A stretch of 64,000 bases of DNA, taken from positions 127-64,126 of IMG/VR virus record IMGVR_UViG_3300012936_000009. One strand, written 5' to 3'. The notes below the pieces were generated by a model. The model ran no database searches. It saw nothing but the letters and a program-made list of their open reading frames with translations, and had not been told where the DNA came from. The translations under genes and the position numbers were made by a program. Origin of the DNA: a virus. Taxonomy: Duplodnaviria > Caudoviricetes. Below are positions 25,923 through 51,442 of the stretch, piece after piece. How positions within the stretch are numbered: position 1 is the stretch's first letter; every line of letters starts with the position of its first letter.

Positions 25923-26789
25923 TTATGAAGTTTCTTCTTGTTTTTCTGGTTCTAAGGTAAATAAATCATCGATGTGTTGATCTTTCTTTAGGGTGAAACC
26001 AGCAGCTTTTCTATGACCACCTCCGCCAAACTTCTTAGCAAATTCACTCACATCAACATTATCGTGAAAAGAACGCAGACTAACTTTAGTGAGACCGGCG
26101 TCATGATCAAAATACCAGATAACAGCAAAATCGCAATCAGGGGACAATCTAGAACCTATTTCAGACATCCAATGAGATGCGTTTACTATCATAACCTTTT
26201 TATCTTCAAAGTAACGGACAACTGCTTTTTCGCAAACTTTCTTAATAACAGTTTTAGAATAAGCTAAGATGTAACTACCTCTCTTGACAGCGTCGTCAAA
26301 TACTGAATCATCTTCAAATTTCTCAAACTCTTCGAATTCAAAAGGTACCATGTCAAAAGCAGCGCTGAACTCTTTTGAGTAATCGAGTTCCCACGTCCAC
26401 AAATCTCTATCCATTATATACCTGATGAATTTTGGTGGTTCTTTTCCGGGGTGAAAAAATTCCCAAGCTAACATAGCGCCTGATTTCGTCATATCAAAAT
26501 GTGTATTAGATATGTCGTGCAATTCTACCATAGCTGACTTATGATGATCAATGACTATCAAATCTTCAGCTTCTTCAATCATTTGCTTAGTAGTTGCATT
26601 GTTAAAAGAAAAATCTAATATAGCTACAACTTTGCCGTCTACATCCGGAGGAGTTTGACCATGCTTACATGCATAATACTCAGCTCTATTTCCAAGTAAT
26701 TTCCAAGCAGAATATGCTGCACCAAAACCATCCGTGCAATCTGCATGATAAATTACGCAATTTACTTGACTAGGTTCTACCATTTTCAT
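25923..26789 (-). CDS. DHH/DHHA1 family phosphoesterase
   Basis: YHADCTDG, ILDF, IDHH, DRDLW, SLRS, FGGGGHRKAAGF. Confidence 0.9.
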   Translation of the reverse strand: MKMVEPSQVNCVIYHADCTDGFGAAYSAWKLLGNRAEYYACKHGQTPPDVDGKVVAILDFSFNNATTKQMIEEAEDLIVIDHHKSAMVELHDISNTHFDMTKSGAMLAWEFFHPGKEPPKFIRYIMDRDLWTWELDYSKEFSAAFDMVPFEFEEFEKFEDDSVFDDAVKRGSYILAYSKTVIKKVCEKAVVRYFEDKKVMIVNASHWMSEIGSRLSPDCDFAVIWYFDHDAGLTKVSLRSFHDNVDVSEFAKKFGGGGHRKAAGFTLKKDQHIDDLFTLEPEKQEETS

Positions 26790-26852: not shown

Positions 26853-27437
26853 TTATTCGTTTATGAAATGGGCAAAGCACCTGGGTTGATAAAGTTCCGA
26901 ACCACCTACCTCTATTCGATCGTGATCTTTGCCTGAAATTTTCTGTGTAAAGAAAGCATCTTCACCGCATACCGAACATACTGCTGGGCATATTTGTATA
27001 TTTGTTGCCCATGGTAGCAGCTTATTCATCTCTTGATAAGGTTCTCCGCTAGAGGAAAGCTGAAGGCTTGAGACTAGGACTGTCTTTCCCGACTTATAGA
27101 TTTTGATCAAAACGTCAGAAACGTTTTCTATCATGAAAGCTTCATCTAGAGCCACTACGTCAACTTCATATTGTTCACTATAAGATTTGAAATACCTGTA
27201 CAGCTCTAAACTCGAGTTGACTCTGATAATCTTGCTAAAGTTCTCTTTTCCGCTTTTCCACTTAAGGCCAGAGTGAGTCACTACTGAATCTTTGGAATAC
27301 CTGGTATCTATCGCTGGCTTGAACAAAAGAATATTCTTGTTTTGGTACGCGTACCTCTCTAATGAAGATAAAAGTCTTGTGGTCTTTCCACCAAACATCG
27401 GACCAGTAAATATTTCAAATCTAGGATTAATTTGCAT
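26853..27437 (-). CDS. tdk: Thymidine kinase (type II)
   Basis: GPMFGGKTTRLL, FKPAIDTRY, LDEAF, CSVC, VGG..LYQPRC. Confidence 0.9.
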   Translation of the reverse strand: MQINPRFEIFTGPMFGGKTTRLLSSLERYAYQNKNILLFKPAIDTRYSKDSVVTHSGLKWKSGKENFSKIIRVNSSLELYRYFKSYSEQYEVDVVALDEAFMIENVSDVLIKIYKSGKTVLVSSLQLSSSGEPYQEMNKLLPWATNIQICPAVCSVCGEDAFFTQKISGKDHDRIEVGGSELYQPRCFAHFINE

Positions 27438-28416
27438 TTAAGTTCCACCACTTGATAGTATTATCAAGTCCTTCTTCTAAAGAAACCTTAGAACTAAAAC
27501 CTAAAACCGCAGTTGATTTTTCTGTATCTGCTTTAGTATCGCGGACATCTCCTTTGCGAGCTGGAGCTTGATTGACATCAAAACTAAATCTTTCTCTAAG
27601 GATTTCTAAAATTTGATTGTTACTATAACTCTCTCCGGTGCCGATATTAAAAACGTCTCCTGAAAACTTCTCTTTGCTTAAAGCTGACAAGATGTTAGCT
27701 TCTACAACATCATCAATATAAACCATGTCTCGAGTTTGTTCTCCATCTCCGTCGCTCCTCAGTGGAAGAGACTTAGAAAGTTTGTCCATCCAAGCGGATA
27801 TTGCTGTTGAATATGGGCTATCCCCTAACTGACCTGGGCCGTAAACATTAAAATATCTCAAACAAACGCTATCTAAGCTGTAGAGTTTAGAATAAAGAGA
27901 ACAGTAATCTTCAACAACTTTTTTCTGTAATGCGTAAGGAGAGGAAGGAGATATATCTCCTGATTCTACAGAAGGAAAATTGCCGACTGGATCTCCGTAT
28001 ATAGCTGAAGAGCTGCTAAAAATAAACCTTTGAACGCTATCTATACAAGAAGTCATAAGGATTATAGTTTTAGTAACGTTCTGTTCTGTAGTTTTAATAG
28101 GGTTATTTACCGAATATTCTACGCGAGGCCAAGCAGCAAGATGAAAAACTAAATCATATTTCTTTTCAGCAATTCTAGATAAAACTTGCGGAGATGCAAA
28201 GTCTCCCGTTATGACTAAAGTCTTTTCACTATCTTGCAAAGAATCGTAATTAGGAAGTAATTCAGAGGTTACTACCCTCATATCGATACCGGACAAATTA
28301 CCAATATCCCCGTTAGATAAATCGTCTACAACCTCTACTTCCCAGCCTAAACTGACCAATCTCCTTGTTAAGTTCGAACCGATAAAGCCGCATCCTCCTG
28401 TAACTAAAGCTCTCAC
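27427..28416 (-). CDS. NAD-dependent NDP-sugar epimerase/dehydratase
   Basis: TGGCGFIG, HLAA, SSSAIYG, YALQK (YxxxK), RYFNVYGP, QTRDMVYIDDVV. Confidence 0.9.
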   Translation of the reverse strand: MRALVTGGCGFIGSNLTRRLVSLGWEVEVVDDLSNGDIGNLSGIDMRVVTSELLPNYDSLQDSEKTLVITGDFASPQVLSRIAEKKYDLVFHLAAWPRVEYSVNNPIKTTEQNVTKTIILMTSCIDSVQRFIFSSSSAIYGDPVGNFPSVESGDISPSSPYALQKKVVEDYCSLYSKLYSLDSVCLRYFNVYGPGQLGDSPYSTAISAWMDKLSKSLPLRSDGDGEQTRDMVYIDDVVEANILSALSKEKFSGDVFNIGTGESYSNNQILEILRERFSFDVNQAPARKGDVRDTKADTEKSTAVLGFSSKVSLEEGLDNTIKWWNLNAN

Positions 28417-29570
28417 AATTCCTCCGAAACTTGTTTTATGTTATCTTGCTTAAAATTGGTAAAACCAGAATCATCAAGTTCTCCGTTTAAATACTTTATT
28501 ACCTCTAAAGTCATATCCCTCGCTGTACAAGTCGGGACGTTTTGAGCTACGTCATTTAATCTTTTTGTCTGCAGATCGAAATCAGATGGTAGCCCCATAA
28601 GGTGCATAATTTCCCGGTGGCTCATACCTCTCGGTTGAGTTGGGTGCATAATCATCTGTAGAGTTCTACCCACTATCGCGTTAGTACACTCTTTATAGAA
28701 AGCTGGAGAATGATCGAGAAAACTTTTCCCTATAGAAAGCTTGTTTTTTATGTGTTCAAACTTTCTGACTTCTTTGTGATCTGGGTTTTTTTCTTTAAGC
28801 CAATGCAAACAATCATCAATTAGTTCATTTCTAACGATAAATTGATGAACTGAATGAGCAGGACCATTTCCGAATCTATCGATAAATCCAGCGTGATCTG
28901 TCTGGTATTTTTCTAGCAAAAAATTGTAAGAAGGAAACTTAGAAGATATAGATTCTAAGTTATAGACGTCTTGCTGATTAGATTCGTTCGGAATCTGATC
29001 TAAATACTCGAGTAAGTTCTTTCTCTCTCTGTCATAGAAGTTCATTACCGGGGCTGTTTCTGAATCCCAGAAAAAATAAAAAGTCCTCAAACGCTTTTGT
29101 GGAATTCCATGTTTGAAGGTTGAAGTCTTGTATATAGAAAAAGAATAACCGTTTTTAGCTGCTATTTCTGAGAGTTGTTCTCTAACATATTGCCCAGACT
29201 TCGTGTACAAGGCTGGAGCGTTTTCTCCCCAATAAACTCTTGGTCTTATGTTTTCTAAAACAATCTTAGAAGTTTTCATCATCCAAGCGTTTTTGCTGTT
29301 CCTAGTTTCCTGATCTTGGCTTGTGTTTAACTGGCTTAGCCCAGCGCAAGGACATACAGAATTTACGAAATCTAGATTTTCTTCAGGAAGAATACTTTCA
29401 TCTAAATCTATCCTCTCAACATCAGGCCAATAGTTGGTAAGGTGATTTTCGTTCTGTTCAAAAGCCTTAAAGCTTAAGTGGAATTTTGGTTTATTTTTAG
29501 TCGCCTGGCTGCAACCTATCGCAGATCCTCCTATCAAAGGAATCATCGTTGCCCAAGAAATGTCACTCAT
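28413..29570 (-). CDS. Divergent DNA cytosine-C5 methyltransferase-like protein
   Basis: Motif IV VCPCAGLS, motif VI GENAP, motif VIII HGIPQKRLR, motif X AQNVP; motif I degenerate (IPLIGG). Confidence 0.7.
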   Translation of the reverse strand: MSDISWATMIPLIGGSAIGCSQATKNKPKFHLSFKAFEQNENHLTNYWPDVERIDLDESILPEENLDFVNSVCPCAGLSQLNTSQDQETRNSKNAWMMKTSKIVLENIRPRVYWGENAPALYTKSGQYVREQLSEIAAKNGYSFSIYKTSTFKHGIPQKRLRTFYFFWDSETAPVMNFYDRERKNLLEYLDQIPNESNQQDVYNLESISSKFPSYNFLLEKYQTDHAGFIDRFGNGPAHSVHQFIVRNELIDDCLHWLKEKNPDHKEVRKFEHIKNKLSIGKSFLDHSPAFYKECTNAIVGRTLQMIMHPTQPRGMSHREIMHLMGLPSDFDLQTKRLNDVAQNVPTCTARDMTLEVIKYLNGELDDSGFTNFKQDNIKQVSEEL

Positions 29571-30964
29571 TTTTTTCTCCTAGTCTTTTTAACTTTGTAA
29601 CAAGAAAATTCGCGGCGGGCTTTCTTCTCGAAAAAACATAAAGACTGATTAGTAACCTGCTTTATTCCAACAGCCGGAATTTTACCTTGCTCTCTAATTT
29701 CCAGATAATCTCCAAAAGCTTTATCGCTCTGAAATAAATGAGACATTAAATCTTTATCGTTAGAAAACTTATTACAATCTTTACCAGTAGCCATGATGTA
29801 GTTAAACATTTCTGGCAAAACGTTGTCTGCGTTAAATTCTCTATCTATAAAATTAAAACTAGAATCCCTGTAGAGTTTTTGTTCTGAAGGGCTGTTAGCT
29901 ATTTCTATGAGTTTATCAGCAGTTTCCCCTAAATCTTCCCTTGAAGACCAAACAGCGAGGTAGTCATTATCAATATATCTGTTTCCATTAGAGTCAAAAT
30001 TATGTTCTCCATAATGCTTGTCAAAGACGGGAATAGTTCCGCAACCAATTATTTCAATCTGCGTATACTCCATTCTGTCTCCGTAGTTATGGGGTTCTTT
30101 TGGAAGTCTGTAAAAAGAACAAGCAAACAAAGATTTAGATATCAACTCCATACCTTCTGCATAGTTGTAAGGTCCAAAAGTCGGAACTCCATCTACGTTC
30201 CAGTCGTATCCATTAAAATTTAAGTCATACACAGAATTAGGGTGATCTATAATGTCGTACTTAGCACCAATAGATCTTTCAATCCCGTGAAGAGCAAGCT
30301 TAAAAGCTGGGTCTTTCTCTTTCATAGTCGGGTACAGATCTAGAACTCGACGAGGATCTTTCATTGAAGTCCATCGACCAACATACATTAACTTCCGTTC
30401 TTTATCGCTTAAACTATATACATCTCTGTAATTTTTCTTAAGCTCAGTTAGATCAATCCACATCTTAAAACGCTTAGTTCTCTCTCCCAAAACCTTGGAT
30501 GGAAAATAAGAAGAAAACTCACTAGAGAAGAATGTCTTTTCCGAGAAGTTGTATACAATATCACAATAATTTAAAATTGGCAAAATCATTGGAATAGCAT
30601 CAATATTAGCCTTCTTAATTTCATGCATCATTCCAACTAAAACAGGTTTGTCTATTTTTTTAACCAAATTTTCATAAAAAGCAATAATAGCAGCCGGATC
30701 GTGCTTTGAAGAAGGGTAAGAATTAAGGATTACAATGTCATAGTTGCTATTGAGTTTCTCAACTAGAGAAGGGATCTCTGTGTGCTTGAACTCAATTGGA
30801 TCTATCGGCATAGAGTGTCCTTTTGCTCGAGCGAAACTTCTTCCTTTCATAGAATAAACATGAAACTGAACGTTGTTCCTTTGAGCCCATGTAGCTATCT
30901 CTACTGCCCCTCTCTGAACTCCGCAGCCATCTAGTCCCTTACCAAAAATCATCGCAATCTTCAT
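29567..30964 (-). CDS. agt: DNA alpha-glucosyltransferase homolog (T4 AGT family, GT-B)
   Basis: GKGLDGCGV, LNSYP, VGRWTSMK, GIERS, MEYTQIEIIGCGTIPVF parallel T4 AGT (GLEGCGV, INSVP, IGRTTTWK, GLERS, LEYTHLELGACGTIPVF). Confidence 0.8.
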   Translation of the reverse strand: MKIAMIFGKGLDGCGVQRGAVEIATWAQRNNVQFHVYSMKGRSFARAKGHSMPIDPIEFKHTEIPSLVEKLNSNYDIVILNSYPSSKHDPAAIIAFYENLVKKIDKPVLVGMMHEIKKANIDAIPMILPILNYCDIVYNFSEKTFFSSEFSSYFPSKVLGERTKRFKMWIDLTELKKNYRDVYSLSDKERKLMYVGRWTSMKDPRRVLDLYPTMKEKDPAFKLALHGIERSIGAKYDIIDHPNSVYDLNFNGYDWNVDGVPTFGPYNYAEGMELISKSLFACSFYRLPKEPHNYGDRMEYTQIEIIGCGTIPVFDKHYGEHNFDSNGNRYIDNDYLAVWSSREDLGETADKLIEIANSPSEQKLYRDSSFNFIDREFNADNVLPEMFNYIMATGKDCNKFSNDKDLMSHLFQSDKAFGDYLEIREQGKIPAVGIKQVTNQSLCFFEKKARREFSCYKVKKTRRKK

Positions 30965-31416
30965 TTATTTTTTCCTCCTGCTTCCAGCACTCTTTCCCTT
31001 AGTTGCGTAGTAGAAAAAGAATGTCTTCTCTTATTGTAATGAATAGGACATAGTCCTACGCCTGTGTGGTCAGTACCCTTGTACTCTTCGCCAACAATGC
31101 GGATATCTGGATTTATAGTTAAAATCAAATCAACCAAGTCTTGCTCAGATCCGAATGGAATAATTTCATCAACATATTTGCAAGCTGCTAACTGAAGATA
31201 TCTTTCCATGACGCTCTGGACTGGTTTATTCTTAGTATCTGGGCGATCTATAGTTGGATCAGTTAAGAGTCCAACCACCAGATAATCGCAAAGAGATTTG
31301 CTCTCCTGTAACATTACCACATGTCCAGCGTGGAAAAGATCGAAAGTAGAACAAGTAAAACCCACTACTGGATCTTTACCGATTTCGTTGGCCAACTTCT
31401 TCTTATCTAAAAACAA
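30961..31416 (-). CDS. HxGH cytidylyltransferase (TagD / glycerol-3-phosphate cytidylyltransferase-like)
   Basis: STFDLFHAGH, DYLVVGL, KYVDEII, FSTTQLR. Confidence 0.85.
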   Translation of the reverse strand: MFLDKKKLANEIGKDPVVGFTCSTFDLFHAGHVVMLQESKSLCDYLVVGLLTDPTIDRPDTKNKPVQSVMERYLQLAACKYVDEIIPFGSEQDLVDLILTINPDIRIVGEEYKGTDHTGVGLCPIHYNKRRHSFSTTQLRERVLEAGGKNK

Positions 31417-32491
31417 CTCTTACTTCCCTAAAAATGTCTTGTATTCTTTTTCTCACGATAGGCTTTTGATCTTCATTCTTATACTTTAACATTCTGATAT
31501 AGTGGATCATTTCACAAAGCAAAAAATATCTTGAAAAATTGCCTCTAAACTTAGTTTCTAGATACGCGAAAAGCCTTTCCTTATCAACCTTACTTTCAAA
31601 TCCCGAAAAGTTTTCTTCGTAAGAATAGTGAAGAGACTGATAAATTTTTCCAATGTCCATGACCCAAGAGCTGTAAATATTATCCGGACAGTTAGGGTCA
31701 ATTAGATATACCTTGTCGTCTCTAACAATGCAGTTTTCAAAAGTAAGATCACCGTGAGAAAAGCTAGCTTGACTTTCCATAAAATCTCTAACTTGTTTGC
31801 TTTCTAGGAGGCTTATAATCTCTCTTTCATTTTTTACGGCATTAAGAGACATGTGATCTTTAACTCTGTCGACCATTGTTTGCCAGTTACTATTCGGAAC
31901 TCTGATGTCACTAAAGCGAGCTAACAAATCGACTAGATAATCTATATGTTCCTCATTACAAACTTCGTTCAAACTTTTGCCGTTTAAATACTCCATGTCT
32001 AAGGTGTCACCGTAGTAAGTATTGATTTCTGGTACGTGGCAAAGGCTCGCTGCTGAGCTATACCATCTAAATTGCTCGCGAGCATTTTTAGCTTTCTTTA
32101 TAATTCTGTTTCCTACTTTTTCTACAGAACCCCCAGAACCTCCCTTAAGGACTTCATAATCCAAACTCATAAATTCTTCTGGGCGCATTGCTTTGTCGTC
32201 TATATAATAGACTCCAATAGGTTTTCCAAAAATGAGTTCGTGATACTTAACGCCATGTTTATCCATCCAAGATTCTAATACAGGGCGCCTAAGTTGATTA
32301 ATCAACTCTAAGTCTCCGTTACAAGACACTTGACCGCGCGCGGTGAAATATATGATCTTCCACCCAGATTCGTACATTTTATTAAGCTTGCTAATGATCT
32401 TAGTATGGGGAATAGCGTTTTCGTAATCACGGTTGATGTGAGTTGATATCGTATCATCAACATCTACGACTAAAGTCCTAGTTTCTACCAT
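31403..32491 (-). CDS. HAD phosphatase (capsule-biosynthesis type) fused to an APH/choline-kinase-like phosphotransferase
   Basis: DVDDT, FTARG, GKP..YYIDDK; then GGSG, MEYL, HGDLTFEN, LIDP. Confidence 0.8.
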   Translation of the reverse strand: MVETRTLVVDVDDTISTHINRDYENAIPHTKIISKLNKMYESGWKIIYFTARGQVSCNGDLELINQLRRPVLESWMDKHGVKYHELIFGKPIGVYYIDDKAMRPEEFMSLDYEVLKGGSGGSVEKVGNRIIKKAKNAREQFRWYSSAASLCHVPEINTYYGDTLDMEYLNGKSLNEVCNEEHIDYLVDLLARFSDIRVPNSNWQTMVDRVKDHMSLNAVKNEREIISLLESKQVRDFMESQASFSHGDLTFENCIVRDDKVYLIDPNCPDNIYSSWVMDIGKIYQSLHYSYEENFSGFESKVDKERLFAYLETKFRGNFSRYFLLCEMIHYIRMLKYKNEDQKPIVRKRIQDIFREVRVVFR

Positions 32492-32925
32492 TACTTAGTA
32501 CCCGTACTTCCAAAACCGCCAGAACCTCTTTCAGTGGTTTCCTCAAAGAGGGTACCCTCTTCAACAACGTCTATAGTCTCGTAAGCGACTGGAACTAAAA
32601 CGAACTGAATTATCTTTTCTCCAGGTTCTAAGTGAACAGTTTCATTGCCTACATTTGTTAAGTTGATGTGAATCTCTCCCTGATAATCTTCATCTACTAC
32701 GCAAGCCCCAACATGCAAACTCTTCTTTACAGCCACTCCACTTTTGTTAAAAGCCACCAGCGCATGATTTTCCGGTACATTCGCTTTAATGCCGCTAGGA
32801 ATTAAACAAGACTTTCCCGGACCAAGAGTCTCGTGAATTCCGCTAGGAATAAAAAAATCAATCCCAGCACTCAAGGGAGTTCCCCTAGTTGGAGTTTTTA
32901 CTTCTCTTACTTTACTAATTTTCAT
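32491..32925 (-). CDS. dut: Trimeric dUTPase
   Basis: SAGIDF, KSG, VVDEDYQGEI, ERGSGGFGSTG. Confidence 0.9.
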   Translation of the reverse strand: MKISKVREVKTPTRGTPLSAGIDFFIPSGIHETLGPGKSCLIPSGIKANVPENHALVAFNKSGVAVKKSLHVGACVVDEDYQGEIHINLTNVGNETVHLEPGEKIIQFVLVPVAYETIDVVEEGTLFEETTERGSGGFGSTGTK

Positions 32926-33202
32926 CTTTAACCTCTTCTATAAAATTTTGCCAAGCACCTAAATAAGCAACTGCGTCAAGCAGGTTGTCCTCTTTAAAGT
33001 TATAAGACTGGCGACTTAACTTAAGAGCAACCAAAGCGATATACATATCATGAGCATTAACGTCTTTTCCCGACATTCCTGAGGCTATTTTTGCTGCTCT
33101 CTTCATTCCTTCGCTGAAGGGGCCGTATTCACGCTCTTTTTCTTCAGACCTTTTATTGACAATCTCATTAGCTCTTTCTAAAATGCTATCGTTTTTCAAC
33201 AT
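32915..33202 (-). CDS. DUF6378-like all-alpha protein (possible dNTP pyrophosphatase)
   Basis: ILERANEIV..R...YGP...LKLSR.....DNLLDAVAY pattern. Confidence 0.55.
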   Translation of the reverse strand: MLKNDSILERANEIVNKRSEEKEREYGPFSEGMKRAAKIASGMSGKDVNAHDMYIALVALKLSRQSYNFKEDNLLDAVAYLGAWQNFIEEVKDEN

Positions 33203-34022
33203 CTAAAATCTCCTCAGTACAGTTATCAACGTAACCGTAAATTTCTTCCTTTTCTAATTCATAAGAAGGAAAAGAAAATTTTCTATCAATTAAATTCCAA
33301 TCTACATCCTTACTCAAAATACAAGTTTCTTCAGAAATGTCAATAGGAAAATCAGAATTACTGATTTTTTCTATCATTGGAAAATGCTTTTCATATACAT
33401 GCAAACTTCCGGCATGGTGAAAGTAACTACCAAGCTCAAGATCTAACCCTATGCTATTTAGTTCATTAAGCATGAGTTGCTGAAATAGAGAAAAAGTAAA
33501 AACATCATTACACAGACCGTAAACTAGATCATTAGACCTCATGTTTACTCCTAGGTGAAGTTTATTGTCTCTTACGAAAAACTGTATGTAGTGAGTACAT
33601 GGATAATCACTTGAGTTCTTGAACTTGTGGTGAGGCTGGTTGATTACAAAAGTTGCTCTTCTTGTATCTCTGTCTTTAATAATCTCGTTCTTAACCCAGT
33701 TCCATTGTGGCTTTAGGTAAACTCCATAGTTAGATTCTACTTCACAAAACTCATCTGAAATCATTCTCCAAATTTGAGCTAATTTTCCGATATTGAGAGC
33801 AAGAGGGTTGGCAGACAAATACCAGAGCCATTCAGCCAAAGCATACTTTTTGTTAAATTTCCTGCTGGGTATTGTAATGTTTACTCGAGTTGGATCAGAA
33901 AGTTCAAAGCTTTCAAAAATAATCTCTTTCTGCTTTGAGTTTCGAGCTTGGACCTCAGGAGCATCCAAAAGTAAGCAACTGTAATGTTGCAATAATTTAT
34001 TCATTGATTCAAATTTACGCAT
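33186..34022 (-). CDS. Thymidylate-synthase-fold enzyme, dCMP hydroxymethylase-like
   Basis: SNYG, TRRA, DYPCT, MRSNDLVYGLCND, HAGSLHVYE; Asp at the specificity position as in T4 gp42 (MRSNDVVFGFRND) rather than the Asn of thymidylate synthase. Confidence 0.75.
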   Translation of the reverse strand: MRKFESMNKLLQHYSCLLLDAPEVQARNSKQKEIIFESFELSDPTRVNITIPSRKFNKKYALAEWLWYLSANPLALNIGKLAQIWRMISDEFCEVESNYGVYLKPQWNWVKNEIIKDRDTRRATFVINQPHHKFKNSSDYPCTHYIQFFVRDNKLHLGVNMRSNDLVYGLCNDVFTFSLFQQLMLNELNSIGLDLELGSYFHHAGSLHVYEKHFPMIEKISNSDFPIDISEETCILSKDVDWNLIDRKFSFPSYELEKEEIYGYVDNCTEEILDVEKR

Positions 34023-34027
34023 ATTAT

Positions 34028-34056
34028 ATTATACCTCAAAAACTTTGATTTTTCTA
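34028..34056 (-). promoter_or_regulatory. Sigma70-type promoter for the modification cluster (leaderless)
   Basis: TAGAAA-17nt-TATAAT, 5 nt before ATG 34022, no SD. Confidence 0.5.
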
Positions 34057-37000
34057 AATTGAGTTGAAAAACCGAAATCAGACTTATCTAGCTCGGCAAC
34101 GCAAAGAGAGTATGGGTTAAGAACTGAATCCTCTCTTGTTCCCCAACAGAATATTCTATTCTTTTCTCCGTTAGAGCCAATTGCCTCAAGCAAAAAGTAG
34201 GGTTTTCCATTTTTAGTTTTCTTTTTCATAACCTTTACAACAACTAGCCAGTAAAGATTTTTAGCACTCCACTCCTCCATCGGAAGAATAGAAAGTTCTT
34301 CAAACCTATCTGATAACTTGCTTGGAATTACATTAGCAACGTTTATAGTTCCGAGCAAAGATTCTTCAAACTCCATGTTATCTTTAATGTTCCAATCATC
34401 ATTAGGATAACTGAGTGTTAGTTCACTTAGGTTATCTCGACCTTGAAAAGGGTTTTTCTTAGTACTCTTTCTAAGCATGCTCCAATTTTCACTTACACAA
34501 TCATAAAATTGCTTGTAAGATTCGAAATAGCTTTGCCAGTCTAGAGAATCAAGAGCTCTAATTTTCAAAAGAGATTCAAGAGTTTTCTTATTTAACTTCG
34601 AATGTTTCCACTTTCCGTCTTCGTTCCAAAAAAGATCATCGATACTTTGATAAGGGCGATTGGCCAAGATTTCCTCTATAGCCGCCTCGCCGATACCTTT
34701 GCAAGAGAAGAAAGACGGCATCAAAACCTTTTCGCTTACTGGAGTCCAGTTCTTACCAGCCTTGTTGATGTCAATCTTAGTAGTCGTATATCCCATCTTT
34801 TTAACTTCACTTAAAGCTTTCGAAAGTTTATTAGGATTAGATGAAACAGCTTCAAGATATGCAGTTACCCACTCAGTCTCGTAGTAAGTCATAAGCCAAG
34901 CGCAGTAATAAGAATTGATAGCGTAAGAAACCGCATGTGACTTATTGAAACCATAACCAGCAAAATAAAGAATCTTTTCGTAAAGATCTTCAGCAATATG
35001 CTTTTGTACTCCGTTAGCAATAGAGCCAGAAATAAACTTTTCTTGCAAAGCCTTTGCTTTTTCAATATTTTCGTTTCCAGAACCAACTGGCTTCATCATC
35101 TTTCGCATCGCGTTGCATTCATCTTTAGGAATACCAGCAACTACGTGACACAAGTTCATTACTTGCTCTTGAAAGATAATGCAACCGTAAGTCTCTTTCA
35201 AACATTCTTCAATCAAAGGGTGGCCATACACAACGCTTTCAGGATTCTTTTTAGCGCCAATATAAAGCTTGTCAACTTTTGCGCTTAGAGGGCCAGGACG
35301 ATATATAGAAGTCAAAGTTGCAATATCAACTATTGATTCTGGTTTTGCACGCTTAAACAAGGCCTGAGCACCTCTCTGTGTACATTGAAATATAGCGGCC
35401 CATTTACCAGCATGATAAACGTTTTTATAAACTTTTTGATCATCGAAGTCAATAGTGTTAGTAGACATGTTAGAATCAAACCAATCTTTAACTTGACTAA
35501 ATTCTGGATTTTCAACTCCTTGGCCCTGAAGAATTAACCTAATAGTTTGTTCAATAATTCTTAAAGTTTCTAGACCTAGCAAATCAAACTTGATCCAACC
35601 AAAACTCTCTAGATGCTTGTAGTTCATACCTTCAACCCAGGGAGTTTGAGCTTCTCCACGAGCTAAAATTAGTGGCATACGTTCAGCAATTTTTTCAGAA
35701 ACTATTACACCGCCTGCATGACGACCGAGAGCCTTGTTTTGTTTAAATAGAACCTTTAGAGGATCAAGTATTTCTGGGTATTTTTCTAAATAGTTACGTA
35801 AGGATTCCGAATATTTTAGAGCTTCGTCAATATGAATGTCAAAAGAATCTTCAGACTCAGCATCGTTCTTGCGGCCGCGTTTTACATCGACTTCTAGAGG
35901 AGCTAGCGCCTTGTTAGCTTCTTCGAAAGGAACTCTGTAAAATCTCGAAACGTCCTTAACTAAAGACTTCAGTTTAAAAGTATTGTAATTAGAAATAGGA
36001 ATAACATTCAAGTCGCCAAAATTTTCTCGAAGCAAAGATATTAACTCATCTCTATCTCCAACATCAGAATCAATATCTGGCATCTCATTGCGCTCCGGAG
36101 AAAGAAACCTTTCGAAAAGCAAACCATTAGAAACTGGATCAACGTCAGTAATACCTAAAACGTAGTTGACTAAACTACCAGCACCTGAGCCGCGGCCTGG
36201 TCCGATAAGCATCTTCTCTCTCGCAATATCAAGAATAGCTTTCATGGTGATAAAGTATTCCGAGAAATTTTTACTCTTTATAACTTTAAATTCTGTGCGA
36301 AGCCTATCAATATAAACAGGATCTTCGTGAAGACCACGTTCAACTAAGCCTTTCTTGCAAAAATCTAAAAGAGCCTGGTTAGCTGTCTTGCCTTTAGGAA
36401 TTACGTAAGAAGGAAGCTTCATAGAGCGATCCGGGTGGATTTCCCCAATCTCTTCATGAACTACAGAGTGAGTTCTTTCAATAGCATCAAAAACTTTTTG
36501 ATCATCGTAAAAAGACATGCCTTTAGTTGTCTCTTTATAAGAATTCCATACTTGCTCTGCGTTCTTTGGGTAAAGCTCACAAGATAAATCTTCCCTAGAT
36601 TTAGGCAAAGAATCAGGATCGAAATCTTTGAAATTTAGCCAACCTAATTTTTTGTATATCTCTCTTTCTCTCCAATGTTCGGGATGAGCGTAATGAGAAT
36701 CGCAAGTTACAACTAGCTGATCGGTCAAGTTATGCTCATTAGCAAACTCAATAATAGCCCTGTTGACTAGATGCTGAGCTGGCAACTTGTTAAATTGCAA
36801 CTCTAGCATGAGGTTTTTGATCCCTACAGCGTCAGAGAGAGCATCATAAGAATTAGATATACCATTTTGAACCTTTCTCATAAGAGAAGGATCGTCTAAA
36901 AGATTCTGATTTAAATCATTAAATTCAACTTCTTGTAAATGCTTAAAAACTTCATAACTAAGAGGACCTCCTAAGCAAGCAGTCGAAATCATAATATGAT

Positions 37001-37610
37001 CACCCTCAGCTGCTTCCTTCAGCATTTTGTAATCAACACGAGGAAAACGGTAAAAACCTTCAAGGTAGCCGCGAGAAACTAGATTAAAAAGTCGCTGTAG
37101 ACCAGTCGAAGTTTTCGGAAGAACAACTAAATGATGACGCCTCTTTACTGGGTCATAAAATTTTGCAGACTTTGACTCTTCTTCATTTTCGATAGTCAAA
37201 CTGCCTTCGTCTGTTGAAATGTCAACTGTTTCGTCATCGCCATCAACTTTGGCGAAAAGAGGAGTTCTAATCTTTTCTCGTTGTTCTTTAAGCTTGAAGA
37301 TAGCTTCTTTGTCACCTTTCTTTGCAGCTTTAGCTAGTTCATAATCTAAGTTCCAGATATCCAAATCCGGATGAACGTACATTTCGCAGCCTGGGACAAA
37401 TTTGAAGTTTCCTCCTCGTTTGCGAATCTTTTCAGCATGTAGAAACGCATGAGCAAAACTGTTCATATGCCCGTGATTTGTCAAACACCAGCTATCCATT
37501 CCATTCTGCAACACGAAATCGATATGTTCTTGCGGGTATCCTAAACCATCAAAAGTTGAGAATCCATCATGAGCATGGAGAGAGGTAAAATTCTTTGGAA
37601 TTTTATTCAT
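34029..37610 (-). CDS. dnaE: DNA polymerase III alpha subunit
   Basis: PHP motifs (HAHDGFS, TNHG, GCE, CDSHY), GPGRGSGAGSLV, FERFL, MPDIDSD, HAGGV, KFDLLGL, YGFNKSHA. Confidence 0.95.
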   Translation of the reverse strand: MNKIPKNFTSLHAHDGFSTFDGLGYPQEHIDFVLQNGMDSWCLTNHGHMNSFAHAFLHAEKIRKRGGNFKFVPGCEMYVHPDLDIWNLDYELAKAAKKGDKEAIFKLKEQREKIRTPLFAKVDGDDETVDISTDEGSLTIENEEESKSAKFYDPVKRRHHLVVLPKTSTGLQRLFNLVSRGYLEGFYRFPRVDYKMLKEAAEGDHIMISTACLGGPLSYEVFKHLQEVEFNDLNQNLLDDPSLMRKVQNGISNSYDALSDAVGIKNLMLELQFNKLPAQHLVNRAIIEFANEHNLTDQLVVTCDSHYAHPEHWREREIYKKLGWLNFKDFDPDSLPKSREDLSCELYPKNAEQVWNSYKETTKGMSFYDDQKVFDAIERTHSVVHEEIGEIHPDRSMKLPSYVIPKGKTANQALLDFCKKGLVERGLHEDPVYIDRLRTEFKVIKSKNFSEYFITMKAILDIAREKMLIGPGRGSGAGSLVNYVLGITDVDPVSNGLLFERFLSPERNEMPDIDSDVGDRDELISLLRENFGDLNVIPISNYNTFKLKSLVKDVSRFYRVPFEEANKALAPLEVDVKRGRKNDAESEDSFDIHIDEALKYSESLRNYLEKYPEILDPLKVLFKQNKALGRHAGGVIVSEKIAERMPLILARGEAQTPWVEGMNYKHLESFGWIKFDLLGLETLRIIEQTIRLILQGQGVENPEFSQVKDWFDSNMSTNTIDFDDQKVYKNVYHAGKWAAIFQCTQRGAQALFKRAKPESIVDIATLTSIYRPGPLSAKVDKLYIGAKKNPESVVYGHPLIEECLKETYGCIIFQEQVMNLCHVVAGIPKDECNAMRKMMKPVGSGNENIEKAKALQEKFISGSIANGVQKHIAEDLYEKILYFAGYGFNKSHAVSYAINSYYCAWLMTYYETEWVTAYLEAVSSNPNKLSKALSEVKKMGYTTTKIDINKAGKNWTPVSEKVLMPSFFSCKGIGEAAIEEILANRPYQSIDDLFWNEDGKWKHSKLNKKTLESLLKIRALDSLDWQSYFESYKQFYDCVSENWSMLRKSTKKNPFQGRDNLSELTLSYPNDDWNIKDNMEFEESLLGTINVANVIPSKLSDRFEELSILPMEEWSAKNLYWLVVVKVMKKKTKNGKPYFLLEAIGSNGEKNRIFCWGTREDSVLNPYSLCVAELDKSDFGFSTQFRKIKVFEV

Positions 37611-38621: not shown

Positions 38622-39428
38622 TTACCTCTGAATTTCTGGTACCCAATGTGTTGTTCTACCATCGGGAGTTTTTTCTTTTATGACTTCATTTCCATCAGGA
38701 TCGATTTTCTGATTATATACTAAAAATCGAGAACTGAAACTTCCTGATTCTCCGTAAAAATCTTTATAAGATTTTATGGTTGCTCCTCCAGTCTTGAAAG
38801 ACTCTCTCATAACTGACTTTATTGTTTTATTAAGAATTTGTAAATTTGAATCAGATATGTCTGAAACTTTTTTAAATGGGCTTATCCTAGCCAAGTAAAG
38901 AGATTCAGCCTTTATATAATTTCCAACCCCGGCAATAACTGATTGATCCATCAAGACTTTCGTAATGTTTTGATCATCTTTTTTTCTTATAGACTTTAAA
39001 AAATTTTCGCTAGTGACATCTTCAGCTAGCATATCGGGTCCAAAAGAGGATAATTTACTAGCTAGTTGTTTAGGATCTTGAGACAGTTTTATTGTTCCAA
39101 AATTTCTCATGTCATTGAAATAGACTGATTTGCCGTTTTCGAAAGAAAATTTTAACCTAGTATGCTTTGTTTCAATATTTTGCCAAGCTCCAGACATTCC
39201 CAAAGTTGACCACATACTACTCTTATCTTCAAAAATAGTGTATATGAACTTACCGTGAACTCCAACTCCCTTAATTTCTAAAGGAAGCTTTTCGTTAAAT
39301 TCTTTCAATCCCGGGAGTTCCTTTTTTGTGTACCTACCCGAAACTACTTCTACCTTTGTCAGTTTTTCTCCCCCGGTATAATCTCCGAGAAATAAGGCAT
39401 ACCTTCTGCATTCTGGACCTTCAGGCAT
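38622..39428 (-). CDS. Fpg/Nei DNA glycosylase with zincless finger
   Basis: MPEGPE start (ATG 39428), HGKF, LGMSG, DMRNFG, MDQSVIAGVGNY; C-terminal DGRTTHW without Cys. Confidence 0.9.
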   Translation of the reverse strand: MPEGPECRRYALFLGDYTGGEKLTKVEVVSGRYTKKELPGLKEFNEKLPLEIKGVGVHGKFIYTIFEDKSSMWSTLGMSGAWQNIETKHTRLKFSFENGKSVYFNDMRNFGTIKLSQDPKQLASKLSSFGPDMLAEDVTSENFLKSIRKKDDQNITKVLMDQSVIAGVGNYIKAESLYLARISPFKKVSDISDSNLQILNKTIKSVMRESFKTGGATIKSYKDFYGESGSFSSRFLVYNQKIDPDGNEVIKEKTPDGRTTHWVPEIQR

Positions 39429-39864
39429 ATTCTTGAATCCTATCAAAATTTTCGTTTAAATAATCATGGTAAAAAACTAAAGCGTGATCATTAGGGACAA
39501 CTTCTTTCCATTTTCCTTTTATAAAGATTTCATGAGCATCATTCGCATATTTTCCGCAGCCATATAAATCCTTAGCGTTTTCCCAATCTAAGTTAATATA
39601 ATCAGAGGAAAACTTTTTGAGAGTTTTTACTCTTCTGTTAGCTAACCCAAGAGGCTTTAAGATTGAAAAGAGATCTTCTTCTTTAGAATCTAAAATAGAT
39701 TTTGGATCAGGATATTTCGAAAAGAAATCGTGTATCATCGGTTCGACTTGCTTTCTAGAAGTTTGATTAAGCATCAAACAAACAACTAGTATCTTCCACT
39801 CATTTGGCCAGAATCTTTCTTGCAACAAATCGTACGGAGATTTAGGAGGTATCCATTTATTCAT
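39421..39864 (-). CDS. MBD4-like HhH G:T/U mismatch glycosylase
   Basis: WIPPKSPYDLLQE...WKILVVCLMLNQTS...PLGL...LYGCGKYAND...PNDHAL matches the MBD4 glycosylase domain. Confidence 0.8.
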   Translation of the reverse strand: MNKWIPPKSPYDLLQERFWPNEWKILVVCLMLNQTSRKQVEPMIHDFFSKYPDPKSILDSKEEDLFSILKPLGLANRRVKTLKKFSSDYINLDWENAKDLYGCGKYANDAHEIFIKGKWKEVVPNDHALVFYHDYLNENFDRIQEYA

Positions 39865-49790: not shown

Positions 49791-50294
49791 TTACGAATCC
49801 CAGGTTCTCTTTTCACCTGAGTATATTATAATCGATCCTGAATTATTTTCAATTTGAATCAAAGAATCTAATTCTAGAATACCTGCATTTTCAGCACCCA
49901 CTAGCGTGTGATAAAGATATTTTATACCATCTCTTGCTTTTATAGCTGAAATTTTAACTCTCAGCCCCCGCTTGTTACCCATGGTTACGATAGACAATCC
50001 CGTGTACACATTTTTCATAGCGTCTGCCCCGGTGAAAGCTTGGCGTAACATATTTTTTATTTTCTCAATGTCATCAGAACCCATAGCGCTGCTGATATTT
50101 AAGTTCTGCATCAACTGCTTAGGATTCTCGGAAGCTAAGGCGCCAGCTTCTTTGACGCCGGCCGAAAATCTACCCGACCCTGTAGAAGCTTCAACTCCAG
50201 CCTTAGAAGACTTTTCTGGTTTCTTTTTCTCTTTTTTCTCTTCATCTTCTAATAAAATATCAGAGACGACTTCCTTAATGTTAAACTTCATCAA
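49791..50294 (-). CDS. Hypothetical protein with leader-like N-terminus
   Basis: MKFNIKEVVSDILLEDE. Confidence 0.6.
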   Translation of the reverse strand: MMKFNIKEVVSDILLEDEEKKEKKKPEKSSKAGVEASTGSGRFSAGVKEAGALASENPKQLMQNLNISSAMGSDDIEKIKNMLRQAFTGADAMKNVYTGLSIVTMGNKRGLRVKISAIKARDGIKYLYHTLVGAENAGILELDSLIQIENNSGSIIIYSGEKRTWDS

Positions 50295-51442
50295 CTACAC
50301 TCCAAATAAAAATGTCCTAAATCAGATATCTCTATCCCTTCTTTAACTATCTCTTTAACAGAAGCTAATTCATCTTTGTGTACATCTAAAACTAAAGCGT
50401 CATGAATAACAGCCAAAGATTTAACAGAATCAGGAAATTTTTTCATTAGGTTAGAAAAACCAACCAGGGAAACATCAACTCCAGAACTTTGAATAAAATT
50501 ATTAATGGCTACATTAGATGTCTTTTTCTTTAGGTTTATCGGTCTGCCAAAGTGGTTGTATATCTTTCCAGATTTGAAATCTCCTGCAGATTCTAAAATA
50601 GACTTTAAATCAAAGTAGTCTTCTATAGATTTCTTGATCAAAAAAGCATCTTTCCCAACTATTTCTGTCAGTTTTGAAATACCCGCTCCAAAAAGAGTAG
50701 ATAAAACTGCAGCTTTGATTGTTTTTCTATCGTGAGAAAGATCATATTCTTTAATGATATCGCTGTAAATATCGACTTTTGTAGTCTTCGAATTCAAGAG
50801 TTTGGCCAGTCTAGGTTCTAGGGAAACATAATCCACCCAAACAATAGAGCCATCTTTATACCTACTTTTAAATATATTTTTTGATTCCCTAGGAAGCAGC
50901 AAAACTTGTGGACCGGATTTAACTACTAACCTTCCAGTAACTGTTTTTAAACGATCATAAGTTAAGCGAGAAGTAAATCCGTCTTCCTTAGGAGAAAAAG
51001 AACTTAATATTTTTCTAACAGTTGGATTTTCTACTTTCGTTCCTAAAACAGATTCATCAACCTTAAAAGTACTTAAATTATGAAGTACTTCGTTTCCAGA
51101 AGAGAAAACTTTTGAATATCTTTTATTAGATAGAGACTTTGCTTCATCTAAGAAGATCTGCAGTTTATTCATTTTTTCAGAATAAACCCTGTAAGGAAGA
51201 ACTTCTTTCCATGGAGGGTTAGAAGAACTAACTACCTGCATCATATCTAGATATTTTTTCTCCAGGAACTCCAGCCTGTCCAAACCATGAATTTCAAAAT
51301 AATCGTTTAAACTATTTGATTTTCCGACATCTAGAAACAAATCCACAGATTCTTGTTTTTTACTACACCAAGAAAATTCTGAGTTTTGTATAACCAGGTA
51401 TTTTTGATTATTGAAAAAACTTTTGTCAATCATAATTTTCAT
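50291..51442 (-). CDS. Minimal family-A DNA polymerase domain
   Basis: TVTGRL, motif A VDYVSLEPR, motif B RKTIKAAVLSTLFG, NNFIQSS, motif C VIHDAL; only 383 aa and no exonuclease domains. Confidence 0.75.
   Translation of the reverse strand: MKIMIDKSFFNNQKYLVIQNSEFSWCSKKQESVDLFLDVGKSNSLNDYFEIHGLDRLEFLEKKYLDMMQVVSSSNPPWKEVLPYRVYSEKMNKLQIFLDEAKSLSNKRYSKVFSSGNEVLHNLSTFKVDESVLGTKVENPTVRKILSSFSPKEDGFTSRLTYDRLKTVTGRLVVKSGPQVLLLPRESKNIFKSRYKDGSIVWVDYVSLEPRLAKLLNSKTTKVDIYSDIIKEYDLSHDRKTIKAAVLSTLFGAGISKLTEIVGKDAFLIKKSIEDYFDLKSILESAGDFKSGKIYNHFGRPINLKKKTSNVAINNFIQSSGVDVSLVGFSNLMKKFPDSVKSLAVIHDALVLDVHKDELASVKEIVKEGIEISDLGHFYLECS

Follow-up and report, generated by a model that had tools for sequence, protein, structure and literature searches.

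The stretch analysed here, referred to as the window, comprises 64,000 nucleotides (positions 127 to 64,126) of the IMG/VR virus record IMGVR_UViG_3300012936_000009, that is, nearly the entire 64,126-base record, to which CheckV assigns a completeness of 19%. All of its long open reading frames (ORFs) lie on the minus strand. Between positions 34022 and 26853, read in this direction, ten consecutive ORFs were counted, nine of which are named below, from a thymidylate synthase (TS) homologue to thymidine kinase. An earlier note, made from the sequence alone, had interpreted this region as a cytosine hypermodification operon with its own donor-synthesis enzymes, and all genes that it named were found by profile or structure matches at the positions listed. 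We consider the region best explained as a predicted operon for heptosyl-5-hydroxymethylcytosine (heptosyl-5hmC) in an uncultured, DnaE-replicating marine jumbo phage, and we give this reading a probability of about 60%. The operon and the genes next to it are as follows, with E-values in brackets.

34029 to 37610, minus strand: DnaE-type replicative polymerase (Pol III alpha), directly upstream of the operon (phmmer against PDB 2hpi, 1.7e-93)
33186 to 34022, minus strand: TS homologue, predicted dCMP hydroxymethylase (PF00303, 2e-15; PDB 1b49, 2.2e-21)
32915 to 33202, minus strand: DUF6378 small helical protein, 95 amino acids (aa) (PF19905, 2.5e-11)
32491 to 32925, minus strand: trimeric-type dUTPase (PF00692, 3.3e-22; TIGR00576, 1.4e-30, above cut-off)
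31403 to 32491, minus strand: fusion of an N-terminal HAD phosphatase and a C-terminal APH-like kinase, 362 aa (TIGR01689, 1.4e-23; APH/Bud32-like)
30961 to 31416, minus strand: HxGH nucleotidyltransferase, CTP_transf_like, 151 aa (PF01467, 1.6e-15)
29567 to 30964, minus strand: homologue of T4 alpha-glucosyltransferase (AGT), 465 aa (PF11440, 2.1e-11; 1xv5, 4.2e-19)
28413 to 29570, minus strand: protein resembling cytosine-5 methyltransferases (MTase-like), 385 aa (PF00145, 5.2e-16)
27427 to 28416, minus strand: epimerase of the short-chain dehydrogenase/reductase (SDR) type, GalE/WbpP-like, 329 aa (PF01370, 4.3e-47)
26853 to 27437, minus strand: thymidine kinase, last gene of the overlapping block (PF00265, 9.6e-38)
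25923 to 26789, minus strand: DHH/DHHA1 phosphoesterase (PF02272 and PF01368; phrog_4771, 2.5e-76), syntenic in the related contigs L003, L005 and L006
24060 to 24497, minus strand: dCMP deaminase-type enzyme (TIGR02571, 1e-16), syntenic downstream

The tight coupling described before was confirmed, as adjacent ORFs from the TS homologue through thymidine kinase overlap by 1–17 nt; 6 nt separate DnaE from the TS homologue and 63 nt thymidine kinase from the DHH gene. A simple promoter and terminator scan was not above shuffled sequences (37 vs. 37.5 ± 6.3; 8 vs. 8.7 ± 2.5), and the boundaries of the operon are consequently defined by the overlaps only. The full gene order was also found in four IMG/VR contigs (L003–L006; one of 143 kb) with protein identities of 58–94%, a conservation far beyond chance, and DnaE is syntenic in L005 and L006 with 82–87% identity. 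Near-identical copies of two of the proteins are present on contigs of 209 and 275 kb. Since relatives occur on contigs of 143, 209 and 275 kb, the window is taken to be a piece of an uncultured jumbo phage. Pieces of it were detected in 20 of the 24 listed sequencing runs from eight studies (marine, seawater and estuary metagenomes), always as contigs, and megablast of the whole operon against 50,697 phage records gave no match. In two RNA-library (metatranscriptome) runs of one study, short contigs were 90–99% like pieces of most operon genes, which might be explained by DNA carry-over.

The TS homologue heading the operon ranked closest to T4 dCMP hydroxymethylase (gp42; 1b49, 2.2e-21) and the CMP hydroxymethylase MilA (6.5e-19) among PDB entries, with the best thymidylate synthase at 1.4e-10. 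It retains the catalytic Cys (gp42 C148), with PCT opposite MCT of gp42, as well as the cytosine-specifying Asp (gp42 D179; ThyA Asn177), with GLCND opposite GFRND. Both columns could be identified because the mutant entries 6a9a (C148S, D179N) and 6l18 (D179N) were among the alignments. An Asp three residues before the Cys is common to both proteins. Synthases of 5-hydroxy-dCMP, the precursor of 5-hydroxycytosine (5hoC), are marked by an Asn replacing ThyA Asp169, according to the available portion of a 2026 NAR study in which nine enzymes were tested (PMC13326640); the window enzyme carries Asp at this position (MRSND) and lacks that mark. An alignment of the window protein with 54 TS homologues from related loci (55 rows, one a truncated ORF) yielded the signature D-C-D-D in 50 rows, that of the window among them, and the uracil-type signature D-C-D-N in four, the truncated ORF being the remaining one, and Asp was present at the ThyA-169 position in all 54 full-length rows (the window and 53 linked TS homologues). 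On the basis of these active-site residues 5-hydroxymethyl-dCMP is the likely product, and 5-hydroxy-dCMP and dTMP are disfavoured. Of the two bases proposed before, hydroxymethyl- or hydroxycytosine, the Asp at ThyA-169 favours the former and speaks against the latter.

The fusion protein and the nucleotidyltransferase encoded downstream of dUTPase form a putative donor cassette. Within the fusion, the TIGR01689 HAD domain covers residues 6–116 and the APH/Bud32-like kinase residues 134–293. The HAD residues D10, D12, T50, K90, D98 and D99 and the kinase residues K132, H246, D248 and D265 (the Lys, the HxD loop and the metal-binding Asp) are invariant in 18 diverse fusion homologues, down to 34% identity, and the family as a whole comprised 306 proteins at E ≤ 1e-5 among 1451 candidates. 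The kinase domain matched APH and Bud32 families only and is not of the PfkB type of heptose-7-phosphate kinases. For the nucleotidyltransferase, the best NCBIfam match was rfaE_dom_II (heptose-1-phosphate adenylyltransferase; 1.2e-21, 77 bits with a cut-off of 181.5), followed by TagD (glycerol-3-phosphate cytidylyltransferase; 7.5e-16, 58 bits, also below its cut-off). A CDP-polyol as donor, named before as one option, becomes less likely with the heptose enzyme and not TagD as best curated match.

An IMG/VR pattern scan for the fusion gene yielded 204 relatives, and gene surroundings were examined in the 80 best loci; since many of these are near-duplicates, the numbers represent contig counts. 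The nucleotidyltransferase gene was located beside the fusion in 71 loci, nearly always as the next gene. Among genes −3 to +4 of the fusion, a TET-associated glycosyltransferase (TAGT, PF20691) was detected in 34 loci, an AGT-like gene in 11 and a GT1-like gene in six; a 408-aa family occupied the glycosyltransferase slot in 15 loci, and 14 contained none of these. Sequence searches with the 408-aa family and a 213-aa neighbour family against the PDB returned nothing below E 0.19. The base-activating gene near the cassette varies: besides cytosine-type TS homologues, there are uracil-type ones (four loci) and Tet_JBP dioxygenases, the latter identified at 9.1e-28 in the L031 record and represented by a 307-aa family in seven loci. 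Because the cassette accompanies each of these three kinds of gene together with DNA glycosyltransferases, the two genes are, judged by the company they keep, a portable donor module for DNA base glycosylation. In Agathobaculum phage AB434P2, a phage of a gut Firmicute, the order is fusion, nucleotidyltransferase (50% identical), an unassigned 328-aa ORF, TS homologue (40.5%), a further unassigned ORF and a DnaE-like gene.

The third component, the AGT homologue, overlaps the nucleotidyltransferase gene by 4 nt, and an AGT-like gene follows the nucleotidyltransferase in nine of the 11 fusion loci that hold one (best 80 loci). The match to PF11440 scored 44 bits (cut-off 25) over profile positions 1–351 of 355, demonstrating full-length homology, and T4 AGT (1xv5) was matched over residues 1–390 at 4.2e-19. 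Its identity to gp306 of Bacillus phage G is 47.5%. In T4, glucosyl-hmC is generated by gp42, gp1, gp56 and the alpha- and beta-glucosyltransferases from host UDP-glucose, and no donor genes are needed. T4 shares with the window the gp42-type active-site signature, a full-length AGT, dCMP deaminase and thymidine kinase. It further possesses a family-B polymerase, a MazG-like dCTPase and a dNMP kinase, none of which was recognised in the window scans, and has no C5-MTase-like gene. The AGT homologue of the window very probably transfers something other than the sugar of host UDP-glucose, as already proposed. Taken together, the gp42 signature, the intact motifs of the cassette and its linkage to glycosyltransferases support the view that the operon hypermodifies cytosine with an activated donor of its own making, and we consider it highly probable that a phage-made NDP-sugar is placed on 5hmC.

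A precedent for this combination of parts has been described in a preprint, of which part was available: a HAD-APH enzyme, a cytidylyltransferase and a GT-B glycosyltransferase, all three required, yielded mono- and di-heptosyl-5hmC in E. coli, for which masses of 449 and 641 amu are given (bioRxiv 10.1101/2023.12.21.572611). The same three enzymes lie side by side in contig 53 (subclass III) of that work. The locus L061:4494–10669 carries the contig 53 parts list, namely C5-MT, a Tet_JBP-like gene, a 365-aa ORF, fusion, nucleotidyltransferase and a 426-aa protein; compared with the window, its nucleotidyltransferase is 69% and its fusion 32% identical. As the same-parts kit gave heptosyl-5hmC in E. 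coli, the glycan encoded in the window is most likely heptosyl-5hmC as well. The best match of the nucleotidyltransferase, the contig 53 precedent and the L061 parts list all favour heptose, for which the odds appear somewhat better than even. The idea of a possibly new DNA glycan does not hold up well in view of the tested kit, and a new variant rather than new chemistry is most likely. Several differences to contig 53, as presented in the accessible text, have to be considered: there, 5hmC is formed post-replicatively via C5-MT and 5mYOX/TET, whereas the window encodes a gp42-like TS homologue for a pre-replicative route and no Tet_JBP was found in the 64-kb record or the 143-kb relative; the contig 53 glycosyltransferase is described as beta-GT-like, whereas that of the window is AGT-like; and the window adds an SDR epimerase and a distinct MTase-like gene.

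From gene identities, motifs, synteny and the linkage of cassette and glycosyltransferase we infer the following pathway, with each substrate and product deduced in this way. The gp42-like TS homologue would convert dCMP to 5-hydroxymethyl-dCMP, which would be phosphorylated by kinases not found in the fragment and be incorporated into DNA instead of dC. The C-terminal APH-like kinase of the fusion is predicted to phosphorylate C1 of a host sugar phosphate, most likely D-glycero-D-manno-heptose 7-phosphate, after which the N-terminal HAD domain would strip the distal phosphate and the HxGH nucleotidyltransferase would convert the resulting sugar-1-phosphate to an NDP-sugar. This succession of a kinase acting at C1, a HAD phosphatase and nucleotidyl transfer is the logic of ADP-heptose synthesis and likewise of the UDP-arabinose route, and the same bisphosphate logic is reported for RB69-like phages in the available part of PMC13326640. 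The AGT homologue would then move the sugar onto the hydroxyl of 5hmC in duplex DNA, presumably resulting in heptosyl-5hmC, possibly oligo-heptosyl, and thereby shielding the genome from nucleases. For the GalE-like epimerase, a role in supplying or altering a second nucleotide sugar is probable, and the MTase-like enzyme would most simply methylate cytosines that escaped replacement.

Several observations weigh against this reading. The equivalog-level NCBIfam scores of the donor enzymes are all under their cut-offs, and the link to contig 53 is drawn from shared domain architecture and look-alike loci. As the transferase is AGT-like here but beta-GT-like in the tested kit, the choice of donor may differ. 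Residues 1–110 of the HAD domain are 41–50% identical to HAD genes of Serratia LC53, Shewanella Thanatos and Acinetobacter phages, which are arabinosyl-5hoC phages. The closest structures to the epimerase are 4zrm (1.2e-52) and WbgU and WbpP (1e-40 to 1e-43), with HldD 3sxp at only 3e-21, and its retention in a sister lineage that lacks the cassette hints at a second donor. In the 64-kb record and the 143-kb relative (CheckV 52%), both of them fragments, no match was obtained to the heptose isomerase family PF13580 (GmhA), which the host may supply, to the thymidylate-kinase family PF02223, or to Tet_JBP (PF12851), a family that none of the control genomes matched either. Pfam scans of 60 window ORFs recognised neither a dNMP kinase nor a dCTPase. 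Because GmhA, PF02223, Tet_JBP and dCTPase were not found in the fragments scanned, the pathway needs host enzymes or genes located elsewhere, and since no dCTPase was recognised, replacement of cytosine may be partial.

The same architecture might also serve another sugar, such as an NDP-pentose (arabinose or ribose from a host pentose 5-phosphate), another hexose, or a UDP-hexose or N-acetylhexosamine (HexNAc) epimer made by the GalE-like enzyme, resulting in pentosyl-, galactosyl- or HexNAc-5hmC and possibly in a mixed glycan. The resemblance of the HAD domain to those of arabinosylating phages, whose bisphosphate logic makes UDP-arabinose in the part of PMC13326640 at hand, fits a pentose, but the operon contains no arabinose-5-phosphate isomerase and no NTP_transferase-APH fusion in the Pfam scans of the 60 ORFs, and its TS homologue is not of the 5hoC type. 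For a hexose or HexNAc, the closest relatives of the epimerase are UDP-Glc/GlcNAc 4-epimerases (4zrm, WbgU, WbpP), and pairs of glycosyltransferase and epimerase give epimerase-dependent hexose, HexNAc and hexuronic-acid adducts in the accessible text of the preprint (bioRxiv 10.1101/2023.12.21.572611). Against both stand the nucleotidyltransferase, which scores highest versus a heptose enzyme, and the tested kit, the sole one of this architecture in that text, which gave heptose. In sum, we regard another sugar as a tentative and rather unlikely alternative to heptose.

Far less probable are two explanations in which no sugar is attached to the base. APH-fold kinases include choline and ethanolamine kinases, and the nucleotidyltransferase also matches glycerol-3-phosphate cytidylyltransferase (7.5e-16), so kinase and TagD-like enzyme could be imagined to make a CDP-alcohol (CDP-glycerol, -ribitol, -choline or -ethanolamine) and a phospho-alcohol or polyol to be placed on the base. 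A HAD phosphatase fused to the kinase suits a bisphosphate route to a sugar-1-phosphate instead, the transferases adjoining the cassette are Leloir-type glycosyltransferases (AGT, TAGT, GT1) and not CDP-alcohol phosphotransferases, and the product of the tested kit was heptose in what could be consulted of the preprint; we consider a CDP-alcohol very improbable. Alternatively, only the TS homologue might concern DNA, and the sugar genes, as auxiliary metabolic genes, would change the host envelope or add sugars to virion proteins. Similar genes of marine myophages have been read as modifying lipopolysaccharide (LPS) in the section of PMC7029224 available to us, and the JGI name of the fusion is 'capsule biosynthesis phosphatase'. 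This is hardly compatible with a run of overlapping genes that opens with the TS homologue at a distance of 6 nt from DnaE, with a transferase that is a full-length homologue of a DNA glucosyltransferase, or with a cassette accompanying DNA-base-modifying TS homologues, Tet_JBP and TAGT in the best 80 loci; moreover, the kit acted on DNA, according to the consulted part of the preprint. An auxiliary role appears equally improbable to us, and heptosyl-5hmC is retained as the preferred product.

The earlier note had counted the epimerase as the fourth enzyme of donor synthesis. Its SDR motifs GxxGxxG, SSS and YxxxK are invariant, and the NCBIfam GalE model scored 155 bits compared to 127 bits for heptose_epim (cut-off 274.6). 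It accompanies the fusion in only six of the best 80 fusion loci and persists in a sister lineage without the cassette, so the four-enzyme logic could not be upheld. In this lineage (contigs L091–L095), DnaE is 62–67% identical to that of the window, and both the block of TS homologue, DUF6378 and dUTPase and the block of MTase-like gene, epimerase (55%), thymidine kinase, DHH and deaminase are kept. Between the two blocks (e.g. L092:5156–10001), fusion, nucleotidyltransferase and AGT are replaced by a 352-aa unknown protein, a myo-inositol-1-phosphate-synthase-like protein (6e-21), an FkbM-type methyltransferase, a 138-aa ORF and a 481–608-aa protein with the helical domain of 5-hmdU DNA kinase (3.4e-7). 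These phages may make a different, undescribed cytosine adduct through kinase chemistry. Since the sister lineage keeps epimerase and MTase-like gene without the cassette, the two are not part of it; the swap of genes between conserved blocks further indicates that one slot accepts alternative donor/transferase cassettes. With the epimerase present in both lineages but the cassette in one, the enzyme must have a function that the two share, perhaps on a host UDP-sugar. A GalE-like epimerase together with an alpha-type transferase could also result in an epimerised heptose or a mixed glycan that would be new to the literature.

The family of the MTase-like protein is large, with 975 of 2291 candidates matching at E ≤ 1e-5. 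In 18 members, the motifs PLxGG, NE, CPCAGLS, GENAP, HGIPQxRxRTFYFFW and AQNVP are invariant. The nucleophilic Cys, the cytosine-holding Glu and Arg, the motif II Glu (E41, cofactor ribose) and the motif X Asn are retained, and motifs IV (CPC), VI (GENAP), VIII (QxRxR) and X (QN) correspond to the fold and catalytic residues of PF00145. In the presumed motif I, the family reads PLxGG where FxGxG would be canonical; the N-terminal 35–60 residues do not align with ordinary MTases, and Pfam and hhalign alignments begin after the motif I region. In Foldseek, the confident structural model (pLDDT 89.7) matched maintenance methylases of plants, fungi and animals, with ZMET2 (1.7e-12), MET1 and DNMT1 among the top hits, as well as M.HaeIII, M.HhaI and CmoX (8yf3). 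CmoX of Synechococcus phage S-B43, a Cx-SAM-dependent DNA cytosine C5-carboxymethyltransferase, represents a phage C5-MTase fold serving hypermodification and is defined by an SPPC motif and an Arg at the HhaI N304 position, as far as the accessible text of PMC12783734 goes. Although 8yf3 was among the top fold matches, the window family shows neither feature, having CPC in place of SPPC and Asn344 in place of the Arg (invariant in the 18 members), and a CmoX-type activity was rejected. Membership in the clade partnering TET was likewise rejected, as the MTase of L061, the one example compared, aligns only over motifs IV–VIII (hhalign 7e-11), and an ordinary Streptococcus phage MTase aligns to the family in the same way.

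To see what surrounds the MTase-like gene, the best 80 of its 576 IMG/VR relatives were taken and L004 was omitted, which left 79 loci. In 37 of these, an epimerase-like SDR is encoded within 5 kb, mostly right next to it; 36 have a TS homologue within 10 kb and 13 an AGT-like gene. Where a TS homologue lies beside the MTase-like gene, it is of the cytosine type in 45 of 46 cases, the other being a truncated ORF, and the four loci with a uracil-type TS homologue lack the MTase-like gene. In a T4-like group (L096–L116, e.g. L097:3761–12261; G007, G008), the MTase-like gene occurs without a TS homologue within 10 kb, in an island with GT2, NTP_transferase, SDR, two ORFs and a family-B polymerase. 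Look-alikes of the two ORFs in the Atlas are glycosyltransferases and are taken as leads only. The two long records of this group (140 and 91 kb) do encode a gp42-like homologue of identical signature, approximately 56 kb from the MTase-like gene; the two 69-kb fragments contain none. As judged from these neighbours, the family accompanies phages predicted to pre-install a C5 substituent on cytosine, a base that a plain C5-methylase could not use.

Apart from the methylation of cytosines that escaped replacement, the enzyme could act on the C5-substituted base itself, exchanging or derivatising the hydroxymethyl or glycosyl group via an exocyclic-methylene intermediate. Behind this idea are the conserved Cys/Glu/Arg machinery for attack at C6, the apparently remodelled cofactor motif and the company of cytosine-type TS homologues, as well as neighbouring glycosyltransferases, SDRs or the DNA-kinase-like gene. 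These bolder readings, a family that is more than a plain methylase and an adduct unlike the heptosyl-5hmC obtained in E. coli, seem doubtful to us, and unlikely on present evidence. A predicted complex of the MTase-like protein and the epimerase scored 0.00 and is evidence for neither side. A literature search, with most subscription journals outside its reach, returned no account of such an operon or of the function of the MTase-like family. Among cultured phages, the marine Pseudoalteromonas phage vB_Psh_XG4 (L007, 253–6571) carries a TS homologue (31%), a HAD gene (50%) and an MTase-like gene (33%, 99% of the query) within 7 kb and is a possible laboratory model; its record is unannotated. 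In cyanophage S-TIM5 (L008) and three relatives, an MTase-like gene (29% over 95%) has a TS homologue and a polymerase gene approximately 2.4 kb away.

Of the remaining operon genes, dUTPase possibly contributes to pool sanitising. DUF6378 is extremely conserved, with 1902 relatives and 38 invariant positions among 15 homologues, and its gene is always flanked by those of the TS homologue and dUTPase in this lineage. Its model (pLDDT 75.5) consists of four helices. A role as MazG-like dCTPase or all-helical pyrophosphatase found no support, as Foldseek gave no match at E ≤ 0.001 and DCTPP1 2oie and 7mu5 appeared only at E 7–10; a wide VIA fold search reached a best Z of 6.7, on unrelated helical proteins. 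The dCMP deaminase-type enzyme downstream also matched the model of an anti-phage dCTP deaminase (4e-19, below cut-off).

Other systems resemble parts of the operon. The Afh pathway for UDP-arabinose and arabinosyl-5hoC (RB69, DLP3, HY126) follows the same route with homologous HAD domains, but its kinase is fused to a MurU-like NTP_transferase (AfhE), and it includes a separate arabinose-5-phosphate isomerase and 5hoC as base, according to the part of PMC13326640 consulted. The window, by contrast, has a kinase fused to HAD, an HxGH-type transferase and a TS homologue with Asp and not Asn; an AfhF-like HAD domain is present, and neither an AfhE-like fusion nor the isomerase was among the 60 ORFs scanned. 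The locus L118:5107–12384 combines a separate HAD gene, an AfhE-like NTP_transferase-APH fusion, an AGT-like gene, a second glycosyltransferase, two tandem MTase-like paralogues and a cytosine-type TS homologue, and so joins donor genes of the arabinose type to a base enzyme of the hydroxymethyl type. The ADP-heptose pathway (GmhA/HldE/GmhB/HldD) has the same sequence of kinase, HAD phosphatase, HxGH adenylyltransferase and SDR epimerase, with HldE domain II as the best curated match of the nucleotidyltransferase. It differs from the window in that the latter has an APH and not a PfkB kinase, no GmhA that could be found, an epimerase nearer to GalE/WbpP and DNA instead of LPS as acceptor. Bacillus phage G (NC_023719) contains, in the region gp301–gp319 and known from annotation, two AGT homologues (43–47.5%), a HAD hydrolase and a nucleotidyltransferase in one neighbourhood, together with C5-MTase (22%), TS homologue (28%), dCMP deaminase and Fpg. 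Its genes are separate and on mixed strands, the nucleotidyltransferase is of the glucose-1-phosphate thymidylyltransferase type, and the kinase candidate gp311 is a weak match (24%, E 0.001). The phage G literature, in the portions available, mentions the duplicated alpha-GT genes and does not describe their chemistry.

We regard the operon as a variant of a known anti-restriction strategy, in which pre-replicative 5hmC is combined with an alpha-type transferase and a heptose-type donor cassette. The heptose-type cassette, tested so far only in a post-replicative TET setting, is here joined to a pre-replicative route of the T4 type, which would modify every cytosine of a marine jumbo phage. 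New in this analysis are the placement of epimerase and MTase-like gene outside the donor cassette and the swapping of cassettes at one slot. Hypermodification of bases decides which restriction, CRISPR and type IV defences a phage evades and is also behind failures in sequencing and cloning. A fixed slot with exchangeable donor/transferase cassettes offers a simple way to find further DNA adducts, and the large MTase-like family beside 5hmC-making phages is a cheap target for biochemistry and possibly a useful DNA-labelling enzyme.

Elsewhere in the window, genes for ribonucleotide reductase, DnaB, RecA, a gp32-like protein, two flap endonucleases, GroEL, sigma-70, peptide deformylase, a GMP-reductase-like protein, ClpP, Fpg, a HhH-GPD glycosylase and a T4-type baseplate protein were recognised. 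Replication by DnaE, as assumed before, agrees with the match to 2hpi (1.7e-93); a 383-aa ORF with a family-A DNA polymerase domain (50291–51442; 4.3e-12) lies on the same fragment. The overlapping Fpg and HhH-GPD glycosylase genes (38622–39864) are located just upstream of a DnaJ-like gene and DnaE, and Bacillus phage G likewise carries Fpg (31% identical) beside its AGT cluster.

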